From Halobacteriales archaeon (lineage in GTDB: Archaea; Halobacteriota; Halobacteria; Halobacteriales; SKSH01): DNA of 64,000 nucleotides. This document shows, one piece after another, positions 11,165 to 22,403 of the stretch (its first letter is position 1; every line of letters starts with the position of its first letter). A model generated the notes under the pieces. It worked only from the letters and a program-made list of their open reading frames with translations. It searched no databases and was not told the origin of the DNA. Both the position numbers and the translations under genes were made by a program. The stretch lies in the NCBI GenBank assembly GCA_046543335.1, contig JBKGZP010000004.1, forward strand, positions 5,620 through 69,619. Direction: 5' to 3'.

Positions 11165-12001
11165 CTACCCGTATCGCTCGAGCAAGCCGTCGGCGAACGG
11201 TGTCCGCCGCCCGCGACGGTCAGCGACCCGCTCGGCGAGCTCGACGGCCACGTATGCGAGGACGAGCCCGGCCACGACGTCCGTTGCCCAGTGAATCCCG
11301 AGGTACATGGTCGAGACGACGACGCTGGCCGCGATGGCCGCGGAGACCGGGAGCCACCGGGGGTACGTATCTCGGGTGCGCCACGCCAGGAGGACCACCG
11401 TCGCGGCGAGCGACGCGTGGAGCGACGGGAACACGTTGGTGTTGCGGTTCACCTGCCGGGTGAGGTTCTGGTACTCGGGGTAGGTCGAGTACAGGAGCGG
11501 TTCGACGGTATCCGGCAGGAGGTTTCGGGGGCCGTACGCGATGACGACGAGGTAGAAGAGGAGGCCCAGCAGGTAGTTCGAGGCGTACGCGATCACCAGC
11601 GTTCGCAGGGGTCGGTTGTCCTCGAGCGCCATGTAGGCGAGCAAGGGGAATACCAGCAGGAAGGCGTAACCGTAGACGTACATCCTCGAGAAATAGACGG
11701 TCACCGGGGGGCTCGCGAAGGACTGCACCCAGACGATGAAGTCACCCTCGAGCTGATAGATCGGGTCGGTGATCTCGAGGCCGATGATCCACGAGAGGTC
11801 GGGTCCGAACTCCCGGGCCAGAGCGTTCACCAGCAGGACCACCGCGAGGAGACCGATTTCCGGGACGATCGAGAGGGTGCGCGCGAACCAGTCCTCGCGC
11901 AGCTCACGAAGCCGTTCGTACCCCACGATCGTCGCAAGGCCGACGAGCACGAGTGCGCCGACGACGAAGCCCAGTCTGATGAACAGGTCCAGGACCATCA
12001 C
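11165..12001 (-). CDS. PAP2 superfamily (Aur1/inositolphosphorylceramide-synthase-like) membrane phosphoesterase/phosphotransferase
   Basis: GPR, NVFPSLHA and STMYLGIHWATDVVAG motifs. Confidence 0.85.
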   Translation of the reverse strand: MMVLDLFIRLGFVVGALVLVGLATIVGYERLRELREDWFARTLSIVPEIGLLAVVLLVNALAREFGPDLSWIIGLEITDPIYQLEGDFIVWVQSFASPPVTVYFSRMYVYGYAFLLVFPLLAYMALEDNRPLRTLVIAYASNYLLGLLFYLVVIAYGPRNLLPDTVEPLLYSTYPEYQNLTRQVNRNTNVFPSLHASLAATVVLLAWRTRDTYPRWLPVSAAIAASVVVSTMYLGIHWATDVVAGLVLAYVAVELAERVADRRGRRTPFADGLLERYG

Positions 12002-13746
12002 GAACGACGACCGAGGAGGACTCCCTCCTCGTCGTACCGGTACCCCGCTTCGATCAGCGCCTCTCGGGCCCTGGCGGCGCCGAGGACGCCGTCCTCACCG
12101 AAGAATGGGACCTCGGGATCGCCGTCATCCCATCGGAGGTCCTCCGGAACCCAGGCGGGGTCCGCGACCGGGGTCGACGCCACCCTGGCGAACCCCTCGA
12201 AGACGACGTCCGAGAGGTGTTGTTTGTCGACGAGGCGGGAAACGACGCGGCGGAAGTTCGTATTGCTCAACGGTCGGTTGCGGATGTTGTAGGCCACGTG
12301 GTAAAAGGTAGGGGGATCGGCCACGGCGATTTCCCCGAATTCGAGGCTCTCGAGGTCCTCGTCGGGAGCGATCGGATCGAGCGTCAGATCGAACTCGCCC
12401 TCCGAGATGCCCTCGAGGGCGGTGGGGTCGTTGGGGACGGCGTCGAACTGGAGCGTCCCGGCGGGCGTCTCCACCGGGTGGGACAGCTCGAGGCTGTCGA
12501 TGAAGTGATCGTCGACGCGTTCCAGGCGGAGGAACTCTCGGCGCTGGTGATCGACGTACCGGTAGGGACCGGACCCGACCGGGGGCATGTTGCTCGTCAC
12601 GAGCCCTTCGGTGAAGGTGTCACGCCACTCGATACCTGCGAGCTCCGCGGGGTCGGTGCGATCGCGCCAAACGTGCCTCGGCAGGATCGGGATGAGGAGG
12701 GCCCGGTTCGCCACGGTCGGATCGGCGTCGAAGGTGATGTCGAGCGATCGGATCGACGTCACGTCGGTGGTGTCGACGAGCCCGAGGCGACCGCGGTATC
12801 GCGGCGCCGGAATTGCCGTTTCTCGGTCCCCCATCGAGGTGTCCGACAGGTACCGGTAGGTGAAGGCCACGTCCTCCGCCGTGAGCGTCTCGCCGTCGTG
12901 CCATTGCGCCTCGCGGAGGGTTATCGAGGCCGTCGAGCCCGACCAGTCGATGCGGCTGGCGAGCCAGGGGACCACCCCCGACGGGGTGCGGACGGCGAGC
13001 TGGTCGTACAGCAGCCCAGTCACGAGTCCGCGCTGGCGAAACTCGACGGACAGCGGATTCAGGTTCCGCGTGGCCGCGGGGTCTCTGATCGACAGGGTCA
13101 TCCGATCCAACGAGCGGGTGGTCGACAGGTTGTAGAGGTCGAACCCCTTGTCGAAGGCCTTGCCATCGACCTGCCCGACGCGGTCCATCCGGTATGCCCG
13201 TCGATCGAGGGGGAACGCGATCGGGTTGAACGGTTGCTCCTGTGCGGTGCGCTGGAGGATCTCTCCGATCAATGTCCGCCGGTCCTCTCCGGATAGTTGG
13301 CGCTGCTCGAGGAGCGCTTCGTCGAGCTCCAGGTTCGTGAAGCCGTACGGGTTTTGCCACCCGCTCTCGGGTGCGAACCGCGAATGGAGCGTGCTGTACA
13401 GAAAGTCGGGGTCGGTCCCACCCGGATGGCGGGCGATGGCCACGTCGAAGTTGTGGTTGACGAGCACCTCGACGCGAAAGCTGTCCGGGGACAGCAGGTC
13501 GATCGAGGTCTCGATGCCGATGGCCTGCAGGTTCGATCGCAGGCGGTTGGCGATTCGCACGGACACCGGGTCCGCGTCAGCGGGGAGGGCGGCGATGGAC
13601 AGGGAGACCCGCTCCGGGTCGTCTCGGCCGAGGATGTTCCGAACGTTCCCCACGCATCCGGCGGTGGCGGCCGCGACCGCACCGGTGGCTGCGAGGAAAC
13701 CGCGTCGACCGAGGTCGTACCTGCGGTCGGATTCGTTCGGAATCAC
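11998..13746 (-). CDS. ABC substrate-binding protein family 5 (peptide/nickel), Tat lipoprotein
   Basis: GRRGFL..AGC; WHDGETLTAEDVAFTY; PVGSGPY. Confidence 0.88.
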   Translation of the reverse strand: MIPNESDRRYDLGRRGFLAATGAVAAATAGCVGNVRNILGRDDPERVSLSIAALPADADPVSVRIANRLRSNLQAIGIETSIDLLSPDSFRVEVLVNHNFDVAIARHPGGTDPDFLYSTLHSRFAPESGWQNPYGFTNLELDEALLEQRQLSGEDRRTLIGEILQRTAQEQPFNPIAFPLDRRAYRMDRVGQVDGKAFDKGFDLYNLSTTRSLDRMTLSIRDPAATRNLNPLSVEFRQRGLVTGLLYDQLAVRTPSGVVPWLASRIDWSGSTASITLREAQWHDGETLTAEDVAFTYRYLSDTSMGDRETAIPAPRYRGRLGLVDTTDVTSIRSLDITFDADPTVANRALLIPILPRHVWRDRTDPAELAGIEWRDTFTEGLVTSNMPPVGSGPYRYVDHQRREFLRLERVDDHFIDSLELSHPVETPAGTLQFDAVPNDPTALEGISEGEFDLTLDPIAPDEDLESLEFGEIAVADPPTFYHVAYNIRNRPLSNTNFRRVVSRLVDKQHLSDVVFEGFARVASTPVADPAWVPEDLRWDDGDPEVPFFGEDGVLGAARAREALIEAGYRYDEEGVLLGRRS

Positions 13747-13884: not shown

Positions 13885-15483
13885 TCAGGTCTTCGCGGAC
13901 CCTTCCTGGGCGAGGAGCACGAGCATCGACAGTCCAGAGATCCCGATGAGGAGGATCGCCGGTACGGCGGCGTACTGGTAGAAGCCCTGCTCCTGTGCCC
14001 GCCATATCTGCGTGACGATGGTCTCGAACCCCCGGGGGCGCAAGAGGAGCGTGATTGGCAGCTCCTTCATGGTGGTCAGAAAGACGAGGGCGCCACCCGC
14101 GACGACGCCAGGGGCCAGCATCGGCAGCGTCACCCGCCGGAAGACGCGAAGCCGGCTCGCACCGAGGGTGCCGGCCGCCTCGATGAGCCGGGCGTCGACC
14201 TGGACGGCCGAACCACCGAGGGCGCTGACGGCCTGCGGGAGGAACCGAACGACGTACGCGAAGGTCAACAGCCCGAGCGTGGGATACACCACGGGAGCGA
14301 CGTTCGCGCCGAGGTACACGAGCGCGAAGCCGAGGACGATCCCCGGGACCGCGAACCCGAGGTACGTGACCCGCTCGAGGATGTCCGGGAGGAGCCCCCC
14401 GTGTCGACGGGCGAGGTAGGCAACCGGAACGGCCGCCGCCGCCGCGACCAGCGCCGTCACAACCGCGACGAGCACCGAGTTCATCGCGAAACTCCACTCG
14501 AACGCGAGCGAGGAACGCCGAGCCGTGCCCGGATCGACGAGCCAGGCCAGCAGGATCCACAGGGGGATGCCCAACGACACCGTCACGACGGTGAGCGGAG
14601 CGAGGACGGCCGGCCACCGCCACCGTCCCAGCGAGATGGGTCGTCCCGCGGCGCGGCGCACCTGCGAGCCCCGGCCGGCCTCCGGGCGGACCGAGCGCTC
14701 GAGGATCAGCACGAGCACGACGAGGGCGAGGAGCTCGAGCGAGAGGATCGCGGCGTAGTCGTGCCCTAAGGACCGCAGCTCCAGGTAGATCTCCCGGGTG
14801 AACACGGACGCGCGCATGATCGCGGGCGTGCCGAAGTCGGACAAGGCGTACAGGGCCGAGAGCAAGGCACCGGCGGCGACCGCCGGTCGGACCTGCGGTA
14901 TCGCGACCTGCCAGATGGCCCGAGCCTGGCCATGATTGAGGCTGCGAGCCGCGTCGAGGAGGCGTTCGTCGAATGCGATCAAGGCGGCTCGCGTGGTAAG
15001 GAACACGTAGGGATAGGTGTACATCGAGATGATCAGGATCGCTCCCCGGAGGCCATAGATCGAGGGTAGCTCCGTCACGCCGAGGGGTTCCAGGAGGTCG
15101 ACGAATCGCCCGCGGGGGCCGAAGGCAGAGACGACGGCGAAGGCGCCGACGTAGCTGGGGACGACGAGCGGGAGCGCGACGAGGACGGTCCAGAGGCGGC
15201 GGTACGGGAGGTCCGTCAGCGTGGTCAAGACGGCGAGGGGGACCCCCACGATGACGCCAGCGGCCGTGACGCCGAGCATGAGCAGGAGGCTATCGAGGAG
15301 GACCTCTCGGGTGCTGTCGCGGACGAGCAGCTCCCACCCCCGGGCGGGGTCGACCGCGGAGGCGGCCAGGACGAGCCACACCAGCGGCGAGACGACCGCG
15401 ATGGCGATGGCCCCCGTCAGCAGGATGAGCCCGAGCGGGACGTCGCCACCGCGTCCGCCTAGTCGGAGGGCGACCCGCCTCAT
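13885..15483 (-). CDS. Fe(III)-type ABC transporter permease (FbpB/SfuB-like, duplicated domain)
   Basis: Two EAA-like motifs (LLDAARSL, LIEAAGTLGA); PSYVGAF, SDFGTP and MKELPITLLL; start at ATG 15483. Confidence 0.9.
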   Translation of the reverse strand: MRRVALRLGGRGGDVPLGLILLTGAIAIAVVSPLVWLVLAASAVDPARGWELLVRDSTREVLLDSLLLMLGVTAAGVIVGVPLAVLTTLTDLPYRRLWTVLVALPLVVPSYVGAFAVVSAFGPRGRFVDLLEPLGVTELPSIYGLRGAILIISMYTYPYVFLTTRAALIAFDERLLDAARSLNHGQARAIWQVAIPQVRPAVAAGALLSALYALSDFGTPAIMRASVFTREIYLELRSLGHDYAAILSLELLALVVLVLILERSVRPEAGRGSQVRRAAGRPISLGRWRWPAVLAPLTVVTVSLGIPLWILLAWLVDPGTARRSSLAFEWSFAMNSVLVAVVTALVAAAAAVPVAYLARRHGGLLPDILERVTYLGFAVPGIVLGFALVYLGANVAPVVYPTLGLLTFAYVVRFLPQAVSALGGSAVQVDARLIEAAGTLGASRLRVFRRVTLPMLAPGVVAGGALVFLTTMKELPITLLLRPRGFETIVTQIWRAQEQGFYQYAAVPAILLIGISGLSMLVLLAQEGSAKT

Positions 15484-15516
15484 GTGCGAGCCCAGAGCCG
15501 CCGGGGGGTTAAACCG

Positions 15517-15532
15517 TTTAGGTTCGCCTAAA
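15517..15532. promoter_or_regulatory. DtxR/MntR-family operator, box 1 (TTTAGGTTCGCCTAAA)
   Basis: Perfect TTTAGG-N4-CCTAAA inverted repeat next to the TTTAA TATA-like element of the permease. Confidence 0.8.
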
Positions 15533-15542
15533 GTCACCACGT

Positions 15543-15558
15543 TTTAGGCAAACCTAAA
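15543..15558. promoter_or_regulatory. DtxR/MntR-family operator, box 2 (TTTAGGCAAACCTAAA)
   Basis: Same palindrome 26 bp from box 1, upstream of the divergent glycosyltransferase. Confidence 0.8.
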
Positions 15559-15591
15559 CATTCATTGGTCGCCAGCTCGGACCCTCCACGC

Positions 15592-16323
15592 ATGACGGAC
15601 GAACGGGCGCGACACCGCCCATCCCCACCCCCCGACGGGTACGACTTCGACGACGTGGTCGTCGTGATGGGCACGTACAACGAGGCGGCGGCGGTCGGGA
15701 CGGTCCTCCAGGACATCGACCGCGTCACCGACGGTCGAGCCAGCGTCATCTGCGTCGACGGATCCTCGGATCGCACGCCCGAGATCGCCCGCGAGCACGG
15801 CGCCCACGTCATCGAGCAAGAACCCCGGGGGTATGGGGTGGCACTCGAGCGGGGGCTGCGGGCTGCCGACCGACCCGTCGTGGTGACGACCGATTGCGAC
15901 GACACGTACCCGATGACGGCCCTGCCGCGCTTTCTCGAGGCGATCAACGACGGTGCTGATGTCGTCAGCGGCGACCGCATCTCGTCGAATCCCGACGCGA
16001 TGCCCCGGTTCAACCGGTTCGGCAACCGGCTCTTCGCGCTCGTCGCGAGCGGGCTCGTCGGACGACGGCTGCACGATGTGACGACCGGGATGCGGGCCTA
16101 CCGGCACGAGGTGATCGAGTCGATCGAGTGGACGGAGAACACCGGGCTCTCGGCCGAACTCCTGATGCGTCCCGTGATGCGGGGCTACCGCGTCCGCGAG
16201 GTTCCCATCGAGTACGACGATCGCCTGGGCGAGACGAAGCTCGACCCCCTGCGTGGCGGGGCGGAGATAGCCGGATCCATCCTCAAAGTCGGCATTGCCG
16301 AGCGCGCGTCGGGGGTCGCCTGA
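15592..16323 (+). CDS. Dolichyl-phosphate hexose transferase (GT2, resembles Haloferax HVO_1613)
   Basis: VVMGTYNE, CVDGSSDRT, GYG, TTDCDDTYP (DxD), DVTTGMRAY. Confidence 0.85.
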   Translation: MTDERARHRPSPPPDGYDFDDVVVVMGTYNEAAAVGTVLQDIDRVTDGRASVICVDGSSDRTPEIAREHGAHVIEQEPRGYGVALERGLRAADRPVVVTTDCDDTYPMTALPRFLEAINDGADVVSGDRISSNPDAMPRFNRFGNRLFALVASGLVGRRLHDVTTGMRAYRHEVIESIEWTENTGLSAELLMRPVMRGYRVREVPIEYDDRLGETKLDPLRGGAEIAGSILKVGIAERASGVA

Positions 16324-16335
16324 CCCGAGGATCGG

Positions 16336-18453
16336 TCAAGGTCGGTCCTCGTCGAGGGACACCTCGAACGACACCCCCGCGATGTGGACGTCCGGTCGAT
16401 CGGGCAGGTAGGTGCCCTCGGAGCCGCAGCGGTCGACGAGGCGACACACCCGCCGTTCCGGCGGCCAAACGACCTCGACCGTGTCACCGGTCGAGCGGAC
16501 GTTTACCGACTGGTGGTAGGTCAGCGTCGCACCGCCCGGTTCGACGAGCCTGACGAAGAGGTCGACGCGATCGTGGTCCGCCAGCTCTAGGGACCGATTC
16601 GGTCGATCCTCGAGCGCGACCGCCTCCGGGGTAACCGTCCATTCGACGACGGCCTCGTCGCCGGATGGCGCCACCGACTCGACAACGGCGCGCTCACCCG
16701 ACGCCTCGAGGCGCACGGTGTAGTGCTCGACCCGGTCGGGGATGCCGACGGCGGCCCGCCCGCGGAGGCGCTCGCCACGCCCGATGCGAAGGCGCTCGAT
16801 CCTCGCGTCGACGGGTTCGGGGGCGGCGGCGTCCCACGAACCGCGGTACGTCAGCCGGTGCAGGTCGCGGTCGGGGTACGCCGAGCGGAGCTCGAACGTC
16901 CGGGCGGCTCCGCCCGCCTGGGCGAAGACGACCGGTCCATCGAGGCCGGGTTGGTTGCGCAACGACTGGAAGGGATGGTTCAGCCACGGGCCGTAGGGCG
17001 TGGGCAGCTCGACCACGGCCCCCTCGAGGTCGGCCGCCTCGACGGGCTCGTACACCGAGGCGTACCGCTCCGTGTATCCGTCGTGGCGCTCGAGCGGACC
17101 GGCGAGCAGGACCGCGGTGACGCCGCCGGCGAGGACCGCCGCGACGAGGACGACCGCGACGACGGTTCGCCGTCGACGGGGATCGGCCCACACCGGCTCG
17201 GGATCCACCTCGGTTCGGGCGAGCCCCCACTGGATGGTCGCCGCGAGACCGGCGGCCGCGAAGATGGCCAGCGGCCAGAGGACGTCGAGGTGGTAGAACG
17301 GGCCGAAGAGGCTCACGAGGCCGTCGGTCGGGTCCCAGGGGGTCCCCAGGAGGTTGTGGTTGCCCCAGAAGGCCACGTTCCCGAGGATCGTCGTGGCGAC
17401 GACACCGAGGAGCAACCCGCGACCGACCGCCTGGCGATCGAGCCCACGCTGGCGCACCTCGAGGGCGGCAGCGACGACACCGAGGCTCGCTAGGGCGACT
17501 CCGAGAACCCCCAGCGGACCCCATCGGGTGATGAGGTACCAGAGGTTCCACAGCGACGACCGGACGCCCATCGCGGGGGTGTACTCGACGGCGTGTCCCA
17601 GGATCGCCCGGCTGCCGAAGCCCGGGCCGTCGCGAGGCGCGAAGGCTTGGTAGGGAAACACGAGGGGGTCGCCGGTCATCCGCGCATTGTACGCCAGGCT
17701 GAGGGCGACGAATCCGAGGCCGAGGGCGGCGGTGACGGCATTCGTCGTCACCGCACGATCGAGGGGTCGTCGACCGAGCCAGCTCCTCGCGACGCGCCAG
17801 GCGGCGTGTCCAACGAACGGGGCCCCGACGAGGACGGCGGTGTACGGCCGCGCGAAGAAGGCGAGCCCGATCGCCACGCCGGCGATGGCGGCCGGACGGT
17901 ACCGACCGGTCCGGTACGTCCGGAGGTAGCTCCAGGCGAACAGCAGTGCGAGCGTCGTCGTGGGCGCGTACGGGAGGAACGCCGCCGAGGCGAGGATTGT
18001 CATCGGCGCGAGCGAGAACGCGCCCGCGGCGAGGAGGCCGATCCGGCGGTCGAAGGTGCTGGCGCCGAGGCCGTAGACCAGGAGGACGTTCGCGGCGGCC
18101 ACGGCCCCGAGGGCGACGCGTGCCTCGCCGACGGTTGCCATCGCGAGCGCGTACAGCCCGGCCGGGTAGGGCGCGTACTTCGGGTACAGCCGGCCCCCGT
18201 CGGCGACATAGAACCACGGTCGGACCGCATCCGCAAGGGCCCCGGCGGTCAGCTCGAGCTGCCCCGCGAGCAGCAGCTCCGCCTGTTGGAGGTAGACCGC
18301 CTCGTCGTGGTTGGCCGAGAGGTGGGGAATGACCTCGCTACCGGTGAGCACCGTCGCGACACCGACGAGGAGCGCGACCGCGACGGCCGCGACGACCGCC
18401 GACGGCGGTCGTCTCGTGCGCGCGAGCGAGTCAAGCGGCGAGGGCCGTGACAC
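16336..18453 (-). CDS. GT-C fold (ArnT/PMT-like) membrane glycosyltransferase with extracellular C-terminal domain
   Basis: NHDEAVY acidic motif after the first TM, YPKY, FFARPYTA, many TMs; start at GTG 18453. Confidence 0.8.
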   Translation of the reverse strand: MSRPSPLDSLARTRRPPSAVVAAVAVALLVGVATVLTGSEVIPHLSANHDEAVYLQQAELLLAGQLELTAGALADAVRPWFYVADGGRLYPKYAPYPAGLYALAMATVGEARVALGAVAAANVLLVYGLGASTFDRRIGLLAAGAFSLAPMTILASAAFLPYAPTTTLALLFAWSYLRTYRTGRYRPAAIAGVAIGLAFFARPYTAVLVGAPFVGHAAWRVARSWLGRRPLDRAVTTNAVTAALGLGFVALSLAYNARMTGDPLVFPYQAFAPRDGPGFGSRAILGHAVEYTPAMGVRSSLWNLWYLITRWGPLGVLGVALASLGVVAAALEVRQRGLDRQAVGRGLLLGVVATTILGNVAFWGNHNLLGTPWDPTDGLVSLFGPFYHLDVLWPLAIFAAAGLAATIQWGLARTEVDPEPVWADPRRRRTVVAVVLVAAVLAGGVTAVLLAGPLERHDGYTERYASVYEPVEAADLEGAVVELPTPYGPWLNHPFQSLRNQPGLDGPVVFAQAGGAARTFELRSAYPDRDLHRLTYRGSWDAAAPEPVDARIERLRIGRGERLRGRAAVGIPDRVEHYTVRLEASGERAVVESVAPSGDEAVVEWTVTPEAVALEDRPNRSLELADHDRVDLFVRLVEPGGATLTYHQSVNVRSTGDTVEVVWPPERRVCRLVDRCGSEGTYLPDRPDVHIAGVSFEVSLDEDRP

Positions 18454-18482
18454 GGCTGCCTGGGTCGTCGGGCCCGACGCCC

Positions 18483-19595
18483 TTAGAGGTCGACGCCCAC
18501 GTCGCGCATCAGGTCGATCGTGCCCTGGAGGTCGGAGAGCTCGGCGAGGTCGATGTTGGGGACATCGAGCTCCGTGATGCGGGGGAGGTCGCCGACGGGG
18601 TCGACATCGGGCGCCATGGGGTATTCGAAGGTCTCCGTCGCGAAGTAGGCCTGCGCCTCGGCCGAGAGGAGGTGGCGCACGAAGTTCTCCGCCAGCTCGG
18701 GGTCGTCCGTCGCGTCGACGACGCCCGCGCCCGCCACGTTGAACATCGCCCCGGCGTCGCCGTCGGTGAACGCCGTCGCGATCGGGGCGTCCCCGCGGTT
18801 CGCCAGCACGCGCTGGATGTAGTAGTGGTTGGTCAGTCCCGCGTCGATTTCTTCGTTGGCGATGGCCTCGCAGACACGCATCTCGTCGGCGTACGTCTCG
18901 AAGCCCGCATCGATCGCCGACTCGAGCCACGAGCGCGTCGCCTCCTCGCCCTCGAGCGTGCGCATCGCGGTCACGAACGCCTGGCAGGAGCCGTAGCTGG
19001 GCGCCCAGCCGACGGTCCCATCGAGGTCGGTCGGGATCGCCATGACGTCCGCGGGGATGTCGTCCTCGTCGAGCACGTCCGTGTTGTACGGGACGGTCCG
19101 CGCGCGCCCGGAGGTGCCGATCCAGCGCTCGTAGGCGAACTCCTCGCGGACGAGTCCCCGGATCTCGTCCGAAAGCGTGCGAAGGCGCTCCTGGTCGGCC
19201 AGGTTGATCAACGCACCCGCGTTGACCGAGAAGAAGACGTCCGCGTCGGTACCGTCGCCCTCGAGGAGGATCGTGCTGGCGAGGTCGCTCGAGCCGCCGT
19301 AGTTCGGGACCACCTCGAAGTCGTCGTACAGCGATTCGATCGAGTCGATGAGGGAACTGACGAGGAACTCGTGGCGCCCCGAGAAGAGCGTCAACTCACC
19401 CTCGAGGTCGGGCATCGCCGACATCGGCGTGCCGTCGTCGCCGAGGCGTCGGCCGGGTCCGGAGCCGATCCAGTTAAACGGCGTTTCATCGTCTTCGCCG
19501 TCCAGGATGTCGAGGCAGCCGGCGGTACCGGCAACGGTCGCCCCCCCGAGGCTCGCGATGAAGGCCCGGCGACGGAGATGGCGGTCGGTATCCAT
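18483..19595 (-). CDS. Fe(III)-type ABC substrate-binding Tat lipoprotein (FbpA/FutA-like)
   Basis: RRRAF..TAGC; FSGR, ADVFFSVNAG, NHYY (tandem Tyr iron ligands), TFEYP. Confidence 0.9.
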   Translation of the reverse strand: MDTDRHLRRRAFIASLGGATVAGTAGCLDILDGEDDETPFNWIGSGPGRRLGDDGTPMSAMPDLEGELTLFSGRHEFLVSSLIDSIESLYDDFEVVPNYGGSSDLASTILLEGDGTDADVFFSVNAGALINLADQERLRTLSDEIRGLVREEFAYERWIGTSGRARTVPYNTDVLDEDDIPADVMAIPTDLDGTVGWAPSYGSCQAFVTAMRTLEGEEATRSWLESAIDAGFETYADEMRVCEAIANEEIDAGLTNHYYIQRVLANRGDAPIATAFTDGDAGAMFNVAGAGVVDATDDPELAENFVRHLLSAEAQAYFATETFEYPMAPDVDPVGDLPRITELDVPNIDLAELSDLQGTIDLMRDVGVDL

Positions 19596-19597
19596 GG

Positions 19598-19615
19598 TTT
19601 TAGGCACACCTAAAA
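19598..19615. promoter_or_regulatory. DtxR/MntR-family operator, box 3 (TTTTAGGCACACCTAAAA)
   Basis: 7-bp arms, 2 nt upstream of the SBP start codon; overlaps the stop codon of the upstream gene. Confidence 0.82.
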
Positions 19616-20823
19616 TCTCTAAGGTCTTTCGGTACCGATCGCTCCTCGACGTGCTCGAGAAGCGCCAGCCACTCGTGCATGTGTTCGGCCATGTACGCGA
19701 GGAACGCCCCGTTCCTGACGTCGACGTCGACGGCCGCCAGACCGTCGGCCAGGTGGCGGTAGGCTTCGGCGTAGTCGTTTAACGCTTGACGACCACCGTC
19801 GGCCGCCCTCTTCGGTGCCGTTCGGTCGCGGTCGAGCGTCCCGAGGTCGATCCCCCCGACGAAACGCCAGAGGTGCTCGTTGAGCGCGAGGGCTGGCGCC
19901 TCCGACGCCAGGTCGTCGAACGTCGATCGGGGCGCCTTCTCGTGTCGGACGAGGGGTTCTCCCGTGTGGATGACGTCGCCGACGGCGTCGAGGACGCGCT
20001 TGACCAACACGCCGCTCCAGATGTCGTCGAATCGACCGACGCCCCAGGGGTTGTCGTCCATGGGGAGCTGGTAGAACGCCGGGACGACCTCGCGTCGGAA
20101 GGCGACGTTCATCGAGCAGACGGTAAGGTACGACCCCGGGTCGACGACGAAGTCGTCGCCGAAGTCGTCCGGTCGCAGGCGGACATCGGTGCGTCCCTCG
20201 AGGTCCCCCGCCGAGAGGATGCGCACCGCGTCGAGGTCGGGCACCTCGGTCCACAGTCCCTGCGAGATCGCCACGTCGCCGCGGGCGATCTCGCGCGTCG
20301 ACGACTCGATGGACTGCCCCATGGCCCCGTAGGGGTGTCCCCGGGGGTACAGCTCCGGGTCAACGTCGGCGAGGACGTTGACCCAGCCCTCCGCCCCTGC
20401 CAGGGATCGGACGGGACCCTCGCGCTGCAGCGCCCGCAGGTGCCCTCCGAAGAAGTCCCGGTTCGGGAGGGGCCGCGTGTCGTCGTCGAGCATCACGCCA
20501 TAGCGAAACGACGGATCGGCCCACAGGTACGCCAGCCCGAAGCTGGTCTGGGCGTGGCTCCGACGCGGGATCAACTCCTGGAATCGCCCCGCGTCGAGGG
20601 TTTCGAACCACCGCCGTCTGAACGACTCGTCGGCGACCGCACCGGCGACGTCGAGTTCGTCGAGGAGCCCGGCCATGGTCTCCGTGTCACAGTCGTCCTC
20701 GGTCACGAAGAGGACGAAGAGCCGATCGGCGTCGAAGTCGTGGTCCCAGGCGTTGGCGACGTAGTCCCGGACGACCTCGGGACGACGGATGGTCGGCACC
20801 ACGACGCAGACGTCGGGATCCAT
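19600..20823 (-). CDS. Reversibly glycosylated polypeptide (RGP/GT75; alpha-1,4-glucan-protein synthase / UDP-sugar pyranose mutase-like)
   Basis: VVVPTIR, LDDDT, YPRGHPY, SQGLWTEVPDLDA, CSMNVAFRR, GRFDDIWSG are characteristic RGP motifs. Confidence 0.85.
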   Translation of the reverse strand: MDPDVCVVVPTIRRPEVVRDYVANAWDHDFDADRLFVLFVTEDDCDTETMAGLLDELDVAGAVADESFRRRWFETLDAGRFQELIPRRSHAQTSFGLAYLWADPSFRYGVMLDDDTRPLPNRDFFGGHLRALQREGPVRSLAGAEGWVNVLADVDPELYPRGHPYGAMGQSIESSTREIARGDVAISQGLWTEVPDLDAVRILSAGDLEGRTDVRLRPDDFGDDFVVDPGSYLTVCSMNVAFRREVVPAFYQLPMDDNPWGVGRFDDIWSGVLVKRVLDAVGDVIHTGEPLVRHEKAPRSTFDDLASEAPALALNEHLWRFVGGIDLGTLDRDRTAPKRAADGGRQALNDYAEAYRHLADGLAAVDVDVRNGAFLAYMAEHMHEWLALLEHVEERSVPKDLRDFRCA

Positions 20824-20832
20824 GGTCTCCGT

Positions 20833-20854
20833 TGTTTTAGGGCGACCTAAAACA
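20833..20854. promoter_or_regulatory. DtxR/MntR-family operator, box 4 (TGTTTTAGGGCGACCTAAAACA)
   Basis: 9-bp perfect arms, 9 nt upstream of the RGP start codon. Confidence 0.85.
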
Positions 20855-20866
20855 GTTGCGGTTCCG

Positions 20867-21934
20867 TCATCGCGCGCCGTGGCCAGCCCGAAGGACGAAC
20901 GTCGCCTGGGCGTCCATCACGTCCCGCAGCTCGACCCGACCCCGCTCCGCGAGGACCTCGTTGGCGAGGTACAGCCCGAGGCCGGGGGCGGTCCCGATGG
21001 GCTCGAACAGCGCCTCGGCCTCGGCCTCGGTCAGGTTTATCGGCTGGACCGTCACCTCGAGCTCGACGCCGTCGTCGTGGGTACCCCCTTCGACCTCGAT
21101 GCTGGGGTCGCCGTCGGCCAGCACGACCGCGGCGCGAACGAGCAGCTCGAGGGCGTCCGGGAAGGTCGTCGGCACCTCGCGGGTCCCGATGGAGTCGGAC
21201 CGGTCGACGGAGGCGTCGGCCTCGCGCTTGAGGTCAACCGCGATCGCGTCGATCGCCCGGTCGACGTCGACCGCCTCGGCGACGCCACCCCGCGACCGAC
21301 GGTCCGACAGGGGTCGGAAGTGTTCCGCGAGGACCGTCAGCGTGTCCGTCTGCGTCTGGATCACCTCGATCGCGTCCCGATCCGGTGGTGACCCGGTCGC
21401 CCGGAGGCGCTCGGCGTAGCCGTCGACGATGTTCACCCCATTGAGGATGTAATGGCGCATGAGGTCGTTGAGCTCCTCGAGGTGCTGGCGCTCCTCCTCG
21501 AGCAGGTCAGCGCGGGCGCGCTGGCGAGCGGCGCGACTCGATTGCTCCATCGCGACCCCCTCGAGCATCCCGAGCAGGGCACCCGCGACGAGGCCCACGC
21601 TGCTCGCGATGTGGGCGACCTCGGCGAGCTCGCCCGGGGTGACCGACTCGGAACCGACGTACAGGCTCGTGATCGCGAAGCCGACCGCGAACGCCGCCGC
21701 GAGGGTGCACCAGCCAACGACGCGTCGCGCACTGGTGGACTCGAGGTCGTGGCGGGCGTACCACCAGGCCCCGTAGAGGAGGGCGAACCCCCCGCCGACG
21801 AAGACGATGCCGTCGATGACGAGGTGCAACGTGTCGACGCCGGCCGTCGACGTGTACGCGGCGTGGGCGGCGCCGGTGACCAGCACCACCGATCCGAGGA
21901 CGATCAGGGCGACGACCTCGCGGTCTCGGCTCAT
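20867..21934 (-). CDS. Membrane sensor histidine-kinase-like protein with degenerate ATPase domain
   Basis: 4 TM N-terminus; LNDLMRHYILNGVNIVDGY H-box; GLGLYL retained but N and D boxes lost. Confidence 0.7.
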   Translation of the reverse strand: MSRDREVVALIVLGSVVLVTGAAHAAYTSTAGVDTLHLVIDGIVFVGGGFALLYGAWWYARHDLESTSARRVVGWCTLAAAFAVGFAITSLYVGSESVTPGELAEVAHIASSVGLVAGALLGMLEGVAMEQSSRAARQRARADLLEEERQHLEELNDLMRHYILNGVNIVDGYAERLRATGSPPDRDAIEVIQTQTDTLTVLAEHFRPLSDRRSRGGVAEAVDVDRAIDAIAVDLKREADASVDRSDSIGTREVPTTFPDALELLVRAAVVLADGDPSIEVEGGTHDDGVELEVTVQPINLTEAEAEALFEPIGTAPGLGLYLANEVLAERGRVELRDVMDAQATFVLRAGHGAR

Positions 21935-21998
21935 CGGGTTCCACGCGGGGTAGGCAACGTCCCCACACGTAACTTGAGTGTTTCCGTCGTATCGCGCC

Positions 21999-22403
21999 TC
22001 ATTCGCGGTCCTCGCGGAGCCAGCGAGCGCGTCGATAGGCGACGAAGCCACCGACGACCGCGAACACGAAGGCCACGGAGGCGACGTCGATTGGTCGTTC
22101 GAGAAACCGCGCGGCCGCCCGATAGCCAGCCCAGTACAGCATGGTCACGACGGCAACGGCCCCGATCGTCCAGAGCGTCGCCCTCGTCGGGCCGTACCGT
22201 CGCGGCCAGAGCTGGCGGTACGCGCTCGGGACGAGCACCCCCACCAGCACCAGGAGGTAGCCGACGCTCGCCTCGAACAACTCGGCACCGACGATGAACC
22301 CGATGGGGATTGCCAGGGCAACGGCGACGACGAGGACGACGAGCGTCCCGTCGGCGATACCCGCGCGGACCCAATCGCGAGGCGAGCCCCCTGACCGTAC
22401 CAT
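21999..22403 (-). CDS. Small four-TM hypothetical membrane protein
   Basis: Start at ATG 22403; hydrophobic helices; TATA-like TTTATAT about 27 bp upstream. Confidence 0.65.
   Translation of the reverse strand: MVRSGGSPRDWVRAGIADGTLVVLVVAVALAIPIGFIVGAELFEASVGYLLVLVGVLVPSAYRQLWPRRYGPTRATLWTIGAVAVVTMLYWAGYRAAARFLERPIDVASVAFVFAVVGGFVAYRRARWLREDRE

Follow-up and report, generated by a model that had tools for sequence, protein, structure and literature searches.

The DNA analysed here (hereafter the window) is a stretch of 64,000 nucleotides (nt) of contig JBKGZP010000004.1 from a Halobacteriales archaeon, in which five genes at positions 13885-20823, with the palindromic boxes at their promoters, probably form an iron-repressed island that couples an FbpABC-type ferric importer to a three-enzyme system of lipid-linked extracytoplasmic glycosylation. 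Three of the genes follow one another on the minus strand: a member of glycosyltransferase family GT75, also called RGP (19600-20823, 407 amino acids, aa), an FbpA-type ferric substrate-binding protein (SBP) with the features of a lipoprotein (18483-19595, 370 aa, ATG at 19595), and a GT-C glycosyltransferase with PMT_2 and DUF7846 domains (16336-18453, 705 aa, GTG start at 18453). A GT2 dolichyl-phosphate hexose transferase gene (15592-16323, plus strand, 243 aa, ATG at 15592) is convergent with that of GT-C, the two stop codons being 12 nt apart, and is oriented divergently from a fused FbpB/ThiP-type ATP-binding cassette (ABC) permease with two BPD_transp_1 domains (13885-15483, minus strand, 532 aa, ATG at 15483). 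Long spurious open reading frames (ORFs) are plentiful because the window has a G+C content of ~70%, and the real genes were settled by Pfam and NCBIfam matches and by inspection of the start codons. These matches and the translations bore out the order and orientation proposed in the initial annotation, that is RGP, SBP and GT-C in succession with a convergent GT2 and a divergent permease. For the permease, PF00528 was matched in two stretches, and every match to the NCBIfam models of fused permeases stayed under its cut-off. A longer ORF for GT-C (16336-18930) was rejected because it overlaps the SBP gene, and the GTG at 18453, 29 nt past the SBP stop codon, was taken as the start.

The palindrome TTAGG-N4-CCTAA occurs four times in the window, with sites starting at 15518, 15544, 19600, and 20837, against 0.08 copies expected, and none of 100 shuffles reached four. 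All four sites extend to TTTAGG-N4-CCTAAA, giving boxes of 16 bp. The box TTTAGGGCGACCTAAA (20836..20851) lies upstream of the GT75 gene, at -13 to -28 from its ATG at 20823, and its distal half would coincide with the TATA box if the GT75 transcript were leaderless. The box TTTAGGCACACCTAAA (19599..19614) overlaps the GT75 stop codon and has its centre 11.5 nt upstream of the SBP start codon. The region between the permease and GT2 genes holds the other two, 26 bp apart, with TTTAGGCAAACCTAAA (15543..15558) upstream of GT2, and TTTAGGTTCGCCTAAA (15517..15532) upstream of the permease, a TTTAA element being found between the latter box and the permease ATG. The stretch 15483-15592 has the form of a mirror-symmetric double promoter, given that each start codon is separated by 41.5 nt from the centre of the box next to it. 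The GT-C gene has no box of its own and lies directly behind that of the SBP, and it is therefore presumably co-transcribed with it. The proposal of the initial annotation that every promoter carries the same palindrome holds for the permease/GT2, SBP, and RGP promoters, but not for GT-C.

The four boxes fit the published motif of TroR, the DtxR-family iron repressor of Haloferax volcanii, a semi-palindrome of the form TTTAGGC-NNN-CCTAAAANAN that was defined by chromatin immunoprecipitation sequencing (ChIP-seq), RNA-seq, and reporter mutagenesis (PMC10783522). As given in the main text of that study, the motif is present in all 32 intergenic ChIP-seq peaks submitted to motif discovery (32 of 36 peaks overall), is often repeated at the promoters of iron-transport genes, and is required for the reporter to be repressed in an iron-dependent manner. 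The palindrome, initially proposed as a metal-regulatory site, is equal in sequence to an experimentally defined operator. From what the same text describes, the locus shares with the TroR regulon not only the operator, but also the presence of multiple boxes per promoter ~26-30 bp apart and the iron-uptake ABC transporters as targets.

The assembly of this genome amounts to 1.76 Mb and is 78.8% complete. It holds seven exact boxes and one with a single mismatch, against 0.28 expected from base composition, and four of the seven exact boxes sit at this locus. The fifth is placed directly before a gene for an ABC_tran + TOBE_2 ATPase on another contig (C62:14728-15921; L033:4729-5922, plus strand), the product of which is 55-63% identical to the ATPases encoded within the clusters of other genera. 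It follows from this resemblance that the ferric transporter is complete but split, with both parts preceded by boxes. The locus was initially described as one of iron ABC uptake, and this stands for the ferric SBP and the permease, whereas the ATPase is found elsewhere in the genome. Another exact box directly adjoins the start of a gene for an HTH_10 regulator (C8:98104; L031:6105), and an MgtC/DUF4010 gene and a gene for cation efflux (CDF) flank the sole one-mismatch box (C46:5881; L034:4881); both sites may mark additional members of the metal regulon. The remaining exact box adjoins an ORF without a family.

One DtxR-family gene is found in this genome (contig C32, 222 aa), assigned by its domain content of Fe_dep_repress, Fe_dep_repr_C, and FeoA. 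DtxR-family operators for different metals look alike, so that the boxes could be imagined to serve a regulator that senses Mn or Zn, with the transporter importing that metal. Such an arrangement is extremely improbable, given that the motif is that of an iron-responsive repressor and that the nearest solved relatives of the SBP are all ferric-binding proteins.

The association of these genes is widely conserved. RGP homologues occur in 316 of the 401 Halobacteria genomes sampled, covering 68 of 91 genera; a phylum-wide sample had one in 15 of the 18 genomes that belong to the same order and in none of 132 genomes of other families. A first pass with flanks of 1.5 kb had the SBP adjoining RGP in 28 of 29 loci. 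The comparison was then based on 40 related loci with ±9.4 kb around RGP, drawn from the 150 RGP matches with the highest scores and limited to one for each genus, so that further genomes of a same genus and genera outside those 150 are left out; the ATPase was counted at an identity of at least 50%, weaker matches being dropped as paralogues. In this set the SBP is present in 39 loci, GT-C in 38, the permease in 35, GT2 in 29, and the ATPase in 20. Two layouts recur: that of the window, where RGP, SBP, and GT-C converge on GT2 with the permease beyond (12 loci), and another where RGP is followed by SBP, permease, ATPase, and GT-C, with or without GT2 (17 loci). The boxes accompany the genes, with 123 of them in 789 kb against 0.2 expected and a consensus of T-TTAGG-C/T-N-N-G/A-CCTAA-A. 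A box precedes RGP in 38 of the 40 loci (median distance from box centre to projected start 24.5 nt), the SBP in 32 of 39 (-5 to 210 nt of the start), GT2 in 17 of 29, and the permease in 12 of 35; it never precedes GT-C. The linkage of the glycosyl genes to the iron transporter, which the initial annotation had put forward for a neighbourhood analysis, is borne out over about 40 genera.

The converse comparison was made with ten RGP-negative genomes, from ten genera and 98-99% complete. GT-C was found in none of these ten and in all five RGP-positive control genomes. An FbpA-like SBP is present in nine of the ten, and is only 34-46% identical to that of the window, while the cluster-linked SBPs, at 44-67% identity to it, form a subfamily of their own.

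The SBP itself begins with MDTDRHLRRRAF..AGC, which contains a twin-arginine translocation (Tat) motif, RRRAF, and a lipobox with Cys27. Residues 67-368 match the ferric-binding protein of PDB entry 7w3w (E 1.9e-50), and 27 further iron-binding SBPs are matched besides this one, the next being HitA, Thermus FbpA (TtFbpA), YfuA, SfuA, and the FbpA proteins of Neisseria and Haemophilus; in Pfam, the matches are to SBP_bac_8, SBP_bac_1, SBP_bac_11, and SBP_bac_6. The residues N256-H257-Y258-Y259 are invariant in 28 orthologues, and the pair Y258-Y259 presumably provides the iron ligands of FbpA. The iron-type SBP of the initial annotation can, from similarity over its full length, be assigned to the FbpA-type ferric-binding proteins. 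Between the lipobox and the FbpA fold, residues 28-66 contain a segment, (F)GQIGSGRxGRxxPGGTPMxELPDL, that is common to the cluster-linked orthologues and has no counterpart in bacterial FbpAs, and most paralogues of the RGP-negative genomes carry ...DSTAVSWDDLGDLEG in its place. The 'GSG' of this segment was considered as a marker of the glycosylation module and dropped, given that the paralogue of one RGP-negative genome has a similar GSG. The system shares with the FbpABC, HitABC, and SfuABC importers the end-to-end alignment of the SBP, the Tyr-Tyr pair, the fused double-domain permease, and the TOBE_2 ATPase; it differs from them in that the SBP is a Tat lipoprotein with an extra conserved N-terminal segment, the glycosylation genes are interleaved with those of the transporter, and the ATPase gene is unlinked in this genome.

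The first of the putative glycosylation enzymes matches PF03214 with 46.5 bits (cut-off 23.8), covering profile positions 155-296 of 342. Among solved structures it comes closest to MtdL, a bacterial GT75 mutase (E 1.4e-23, ~24-25% identity), and the plant UAM is matched with an E-value of only 0.016. MtdL is reported, in the part of the source available, to have a DDD motif (D109-D111), a Mn2+-coordinating H287, and a nucleophilic R159 that becomes self-glycosylated (R158 in OsUAM1), and members of GT75 to show both mutase and arginine self-glycosylation activities (PMC9937993). The MtdL residues D109-D111, R159, D195, S228, R257, D260, and H287 correspond here to D113-D115, R161, D196, S237, R264, D267, and H294, and these seven are invariant in 30 of 30 haloarchaeal homologues; of eight residues or motifs compared, the exception is Gln229. 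The position of MtdL D87 is occupied by a histidine. The AlphaFold2 model of the protein (predicted local distance difference test, pLDDT, 79.9; predicted TM-score, pTM, 0.86) gave MtdL structures at ranks 1-6 of a Foldseek search, with TM-scores of 0.71-0.73/0.78-0.80 (best 0.73/0.80), followed by rice UAM2 at rank 7 (0.57/0.66), generic GT-A folds reaching at most 0.40/0.44. The fact that Pfam score, conserved residues, and predicted fold agree confirms the membership in GT75 that the initial annotation had assigned, for a protein that carries the database name 'alpha-1 4-glucan-protein synthase'. From its sequence, it is predicted to be a Mn2+-dependent pyranose-furanose mutase of nucleoside diphosphate (NDP) sugars or an arginine self-glycosylating enzyme. 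Given that neither this genome (78.8% complete) nor the Hfx. volcanii control yielded a UDP-galactopyranose mutase of the FAD type (PF03275), no ring mutase other than GT75 can be recognised. In comparison with MtdL/Hyg20 and the plant RGP/UAM proteins (CAZy GT75), as far as these are described in the part of PMC9937993 available, the DDD motif, the nucleophilic Arg, the Mn-binding His, the equivalents of R257, D260, D195, and S228, and the fold are shared; the context is an iron regulon here, and an antibiotic pathway or the plant cell wall there.

The GT2 enzyme scores 387.5 bits with NF041391, the equivalog model for haloarchaeal dolichyl-phosphate hexose transferases (cut-off 375), over the full profile (1-213), and 81.8 bits with PF00535. 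Its closest solved relatives are the dolichyl-phosphate mannose synthase of Pyrococcus (PfDPMS, 5mlz, E 4.4e-13) and ArnC, and reading of its sequence reveals no obvious transmembrane (TM) segment. The proposal that it is a DPM-like enzyme that loads sugar onto dolichyl phosphate is borne out, at the level of sequence, by a score that reaches the NCBI equivalog cut-off. The type member of this family we take to be HVO_1613 of Hfx. volcanii, a dolichyl-phosphate glycosyltransferase that is described, in a source available in part, as not involved in N-glycosylation.

The large membrane protein, listed in databases as 'ArnT family / GT39 / DUF7846 protein', matches PF25230 (DUF7846) with 140.6 bits and PF13231 (PMT_2) with 29.1 bits (cut-off 26.1), and comprises some 12 predicted TM helices, followed by a DUF7846 domain at the C-terminus that is rich in beta structure. 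Its AlphaFold2 model (pLDDT 78.6, pTM 0.80) gave 30 PDB matches at E<=1e-3 in Foldseek, and all 30 are GT-C enzymes, among them ALG9, AglB, PglB, STT3, AftA, ArnT, Pmt4, EmbB, EmbC, and AftD. Their TM-scores are 0.30-0.42 when normalised by query and reach 0.57 when normalised by target; the matches are scattered across numerous families of GT-C and do not single out GT39 or GT83, and against the sequences in the PDB no sequence-level match to any solved GT-C was obtained. Residues D50-E51 are invariant in 32 sequences and follow the TM helix 18-40 of the model, and we take them to be the acidic motif of the first extracytoplasmic loop in GT-C enzymes. The predicted fold agrees with the initial assignment of this protein to the GT-C class.

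Taken together, these features suggest a mechanism in which, when iron is sufficient, the single DtxR-family repressor would bind the boxes, which are predicted to overlap or abut the TATA box or the transcription factor B recognition element, and shut off the RGP-SBP-GT-C genes, GT2, the permease, and the distant ATPase gene. Under iron starvation, the importer and the three glycosylation enzymes would be derepressed together. The GT75 enzyme would then turn an NDP-pyranose into an NDP-furanose, or activate the sugar through an adduct at Arg161, the furanose being the probable outcome; GT2, devoid of TM segments, would put a hexose on dolichyl phosphate, and, after flipping, GT-C would hand the sugar over to an acceptor located on the membrane's outer face. 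The overall interpretation of the initial annotation is supported in this sense, and iron-dependent expression, the identity and ring form of the sugar, the use of the mutase product by GT2, and the acceptor are elements that we infer. The acceptor may tentatively be sought in the cluster's own membrane-tethered FbpA lipoprotein, with the sugar placed in the conserved N-terminal extension, a proposal that has less than an even chance of being correct. The lipoprotein is weakly favoured, given that it is anchored on the side of the membrane at which GT-C enzymes are active and that it has the conserved extra segment. Otherwise, the acceptor may be an envelope glycan or lipid that aids the capture of Fe3+. 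A more complete version, in which haloarchaea would respond to iron starvation with a GT75 ring mutase and a GT2 that produce a dolichyl-phosphate hexofuranose in a way not known from other systems, the DUF7846 GT-C would decorate the ferric lipoprotein or the envelope with it, and the glycan would be required for high-affinity capture of Fe3+ at high salt, must be regarded as doubtful.

Several observations weigh against this coupling of importer and glycosylation. Regulation in this organism is read from motif identity alone, and the box centres are 11.5-41.5 nt from the start codons, whereas the TroR motif is located ~100 nt upstream of them according to the main text of PMC10783522. The main-text table of iron-starvation changes above 10-fold in Hfx. 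volcanii omits RGP, GT-C, and the ferric SBP. In 11 of the 40 related loci, no GT2 gene lies within ±9.4 kb. In nine of the ten RGP-negative genomes there are plain boxed operons of SBP and permease, with or without the ATPase, that have no glycosylation gene within 6 kb. This means that the glycosylation module is not needed for FbpA-type uptake in general, and that it is tied to one FbpA subfamily rather than to ferric uptake as such. The family of HVO_1613 is also reported, in a source available in part, to be up-regulated in the 'universal stress proteome' of Hfx. volcanii, and therefore a general stress role, not specific to iron, could apply to GT2. Lastly, Gln229 of MtdL, a ligand for both sugar and beta-phosphate, is replaced by M238 here, an invariant Met in the haloarchaeal clade, and the Q229A mutant of MtdL nearly loses its mutase activity, as stated in the available part of PMC9937993; the substrate or the activity may therefore differ from those of MtdL.

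The replacement of this glutamine, together with the two activities known in the family and with the fact that GT2 scores as a plain dolichyl-phosphate hexose transferase, could be accounted for if GT75 acted as an arginine glycosyltransferase on itself or on a partner in the cytoplasm, rather than as a mutase feeding GT2, and if GT2 and GT-C used an ordinary pyranose on dolichyl phosphate. This is considered very improbable, given that the mutase catalytic set is otherwise invariant and that GT75 and GT-C occur together.

The stress response of the HVO_1613 family and its lack of involvement in N-glycosylation, the paralogous FbpABC systems that work without the module, and the loci where GT2 is outside the neighbourhood would all be in line with genes that are co-regulated but functionally separate. 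In this case, the glycosylation genes would remodel the envelope (S-layer, lipids, or other glycoproteins) as part of a general starvation or stress response, and would be adjacent to the importer only as TroR targets. However, the SBP next to RGP (39 of 40 loci) and the GT-C gene within the transporter operon (38 of 40), in many cases behind the permease and ATPase genes or between them, have been kept over ~40 genera and in two layouts, and in the 15 genomes tested each of GT-C and RGP is present only where the other is. For functions that are unrelated, this degree of retention would be unusual, and a purely regulatory association of this kind is unlikely.

A further set of genes within the related loci bears on the nature of the iron ligand. 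A small subunit of Gluconate_2-dh3 type, with a Tat-type signal, is found in the cluster in 25 of the 40 loci, and in 20 of these together with a GMC flavoprotein (for example L036:2967-5140, plus strand), usually between the permease box and the GT2 box. Judged by sequence, this pair resembles a sugar dehydrogenase that is exported and shares the regulation of the iron importer. Its presence between two boxes, and the fact that the cluster-linked SBPs form their own subfamily, would be expected if the module, instead of glycosylating a protein, made or processed a sugar-based extracellular iron ligand, such as a furanose- or keto-sugar lipid or glycan that chelates Fe3+ and passes the iron on to FbpA, with the GMC flavoprotein oxidising the sugar in many genera. 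The SBP nonetheless keeps the di-tyrosine signature of FbpA and aligns end to end with binders of naked Fe3+, and the pair was not found in this genome (78.8% complete), so that the permease and GT2 boxes of the window stand back to back; the sugar ligand is for these reasons quite unlikely, and the coupling of the importer to lipid-linked glycosylation is preferred. A gene for a membrane protein of the LPG_synthase_TM family (UPF0104) is present in 15 of the 40 loci and one for an NAD-dependent sugar epimerase/dehydratase in 14, just upstream of RGP and on the same strand (for example L036:10601-13009, minus strand). Their sequences make them candidates for a lipid-sugar flippase and an NDP-sugar tailoring enzyme, respectively.

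The pairs ArnC/ArnT, Ppm1/Pmt, and AglD/AglS each consist of a GT2 polyprenyl-phosphate sugar synthase and a GT-C transferase, and the Pmt enzymes of actinobacteria glycosylate substrate-binding lipoproteins. The module shares with these pairs the logic in which a cytoplasmic GT2 loads polyprenyl phosphate and a GT-C uses the sugar outside; they are not known, however, to include the ring mutase, the DUF7846 domain, and the context of a metal-importer operon, all three of which are found here. In mycobacteria, decaprenyl-phosphate arabinofuranose (DPA) is a lipid-linked furanose donor for the Emb and Aft arabinofuranosyltransferases of GT-C type, and is made by epimerising lipid-linked ribose and not by an NDP-sugar mutase with a GT2. 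AftA, EmbB, EmbC, and AftD are among the fold matches of the GT-C enzyme; the furanose donor proposed here is, in comparison, only predicted. The main text of the TroR study covers siderophore genes, idr, and dpsA and not the GT75/GT2/GT-C module, 'glycosyl' occurring there only in a reference title (PMC10783522).

In the literature searched, no paper was found on an archaeal RGP, on DUF7846, or on a link between iron and glycosylation, and no characterised archaeal member of GT75; archaeal DtxR regulon comparisons and the supplementary tables of the TroR study may already list the genes. The literature on 'glucan-protein synthase' in archaea returned plant work only, the iron literature of Halobacterium salinarum (Idr1/Idr2) had no mention of 'glycosyl' as searched, and for HVO_1610 to HVO_1616 nothing relevant was found. 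With the same proviso on earlier DtxR-regulon lists, nothing described in the literature searched corresponds to the pairing with a GT75 mutase, to the DUF7846 GT-C, or to the placement inside a ferric importer operon, which agrees with the remark in the initial annotation that no characterised pathway of this kind was known.

The module is real and deeply conserved; it is an uncharacterised variation on known kinds of system, and it suggests a link, so far undescribed, of iron starvation to cell-surface glycosylation. Were the more complete version with the dolichyl-phosphate hexofuranose true, this would be the first metal importer equipped with glycosylation enzymes of its own, and the archaeal equivalent of the DPA/Emb logic. 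Glycosylation wired into the regulon of the iron repressor would tie metal homeostasis to the chemistry of the archaeal cell surface, and the locus could reveal a new lipid-linked furanose donor. It bears on the roles of archaeal GT75, of the 'orphan' dolichyl-phosphate hexose transferases of the HVO_1613 family, and of the DUF7846 GT-C family, as well as on how haloarchaea acquire iron from brines where Fe3+ is nearly insoluble. Among 14 control genomes, both signature genes (PF03214 and PF25230) are present in Hfx. volcanii only, and the hypothesis is therefore directly testable in this tractable model.

Three neighbouring genes of the window were considered as parts of the system and set aside, given that none of the 40 related loci has a homologue of them (E<=1e-8, at least 40% coverage). 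Two of these, for an SBP_bac_5 protein and a PAP2 phosphatase (11165-13746, minus strand), overlap by 4 nt and lie 139 nt downstream of the permease gene, the SBP_bac_5 protein having 582 aa of which the first ~250 residues are without a family match. The third is an ORF at 20867-22051 (minus strand) with a weak match to HATPase_c (18.8 bits, under the cut-off), and it ends 15 nt from the box upstream of RGP.

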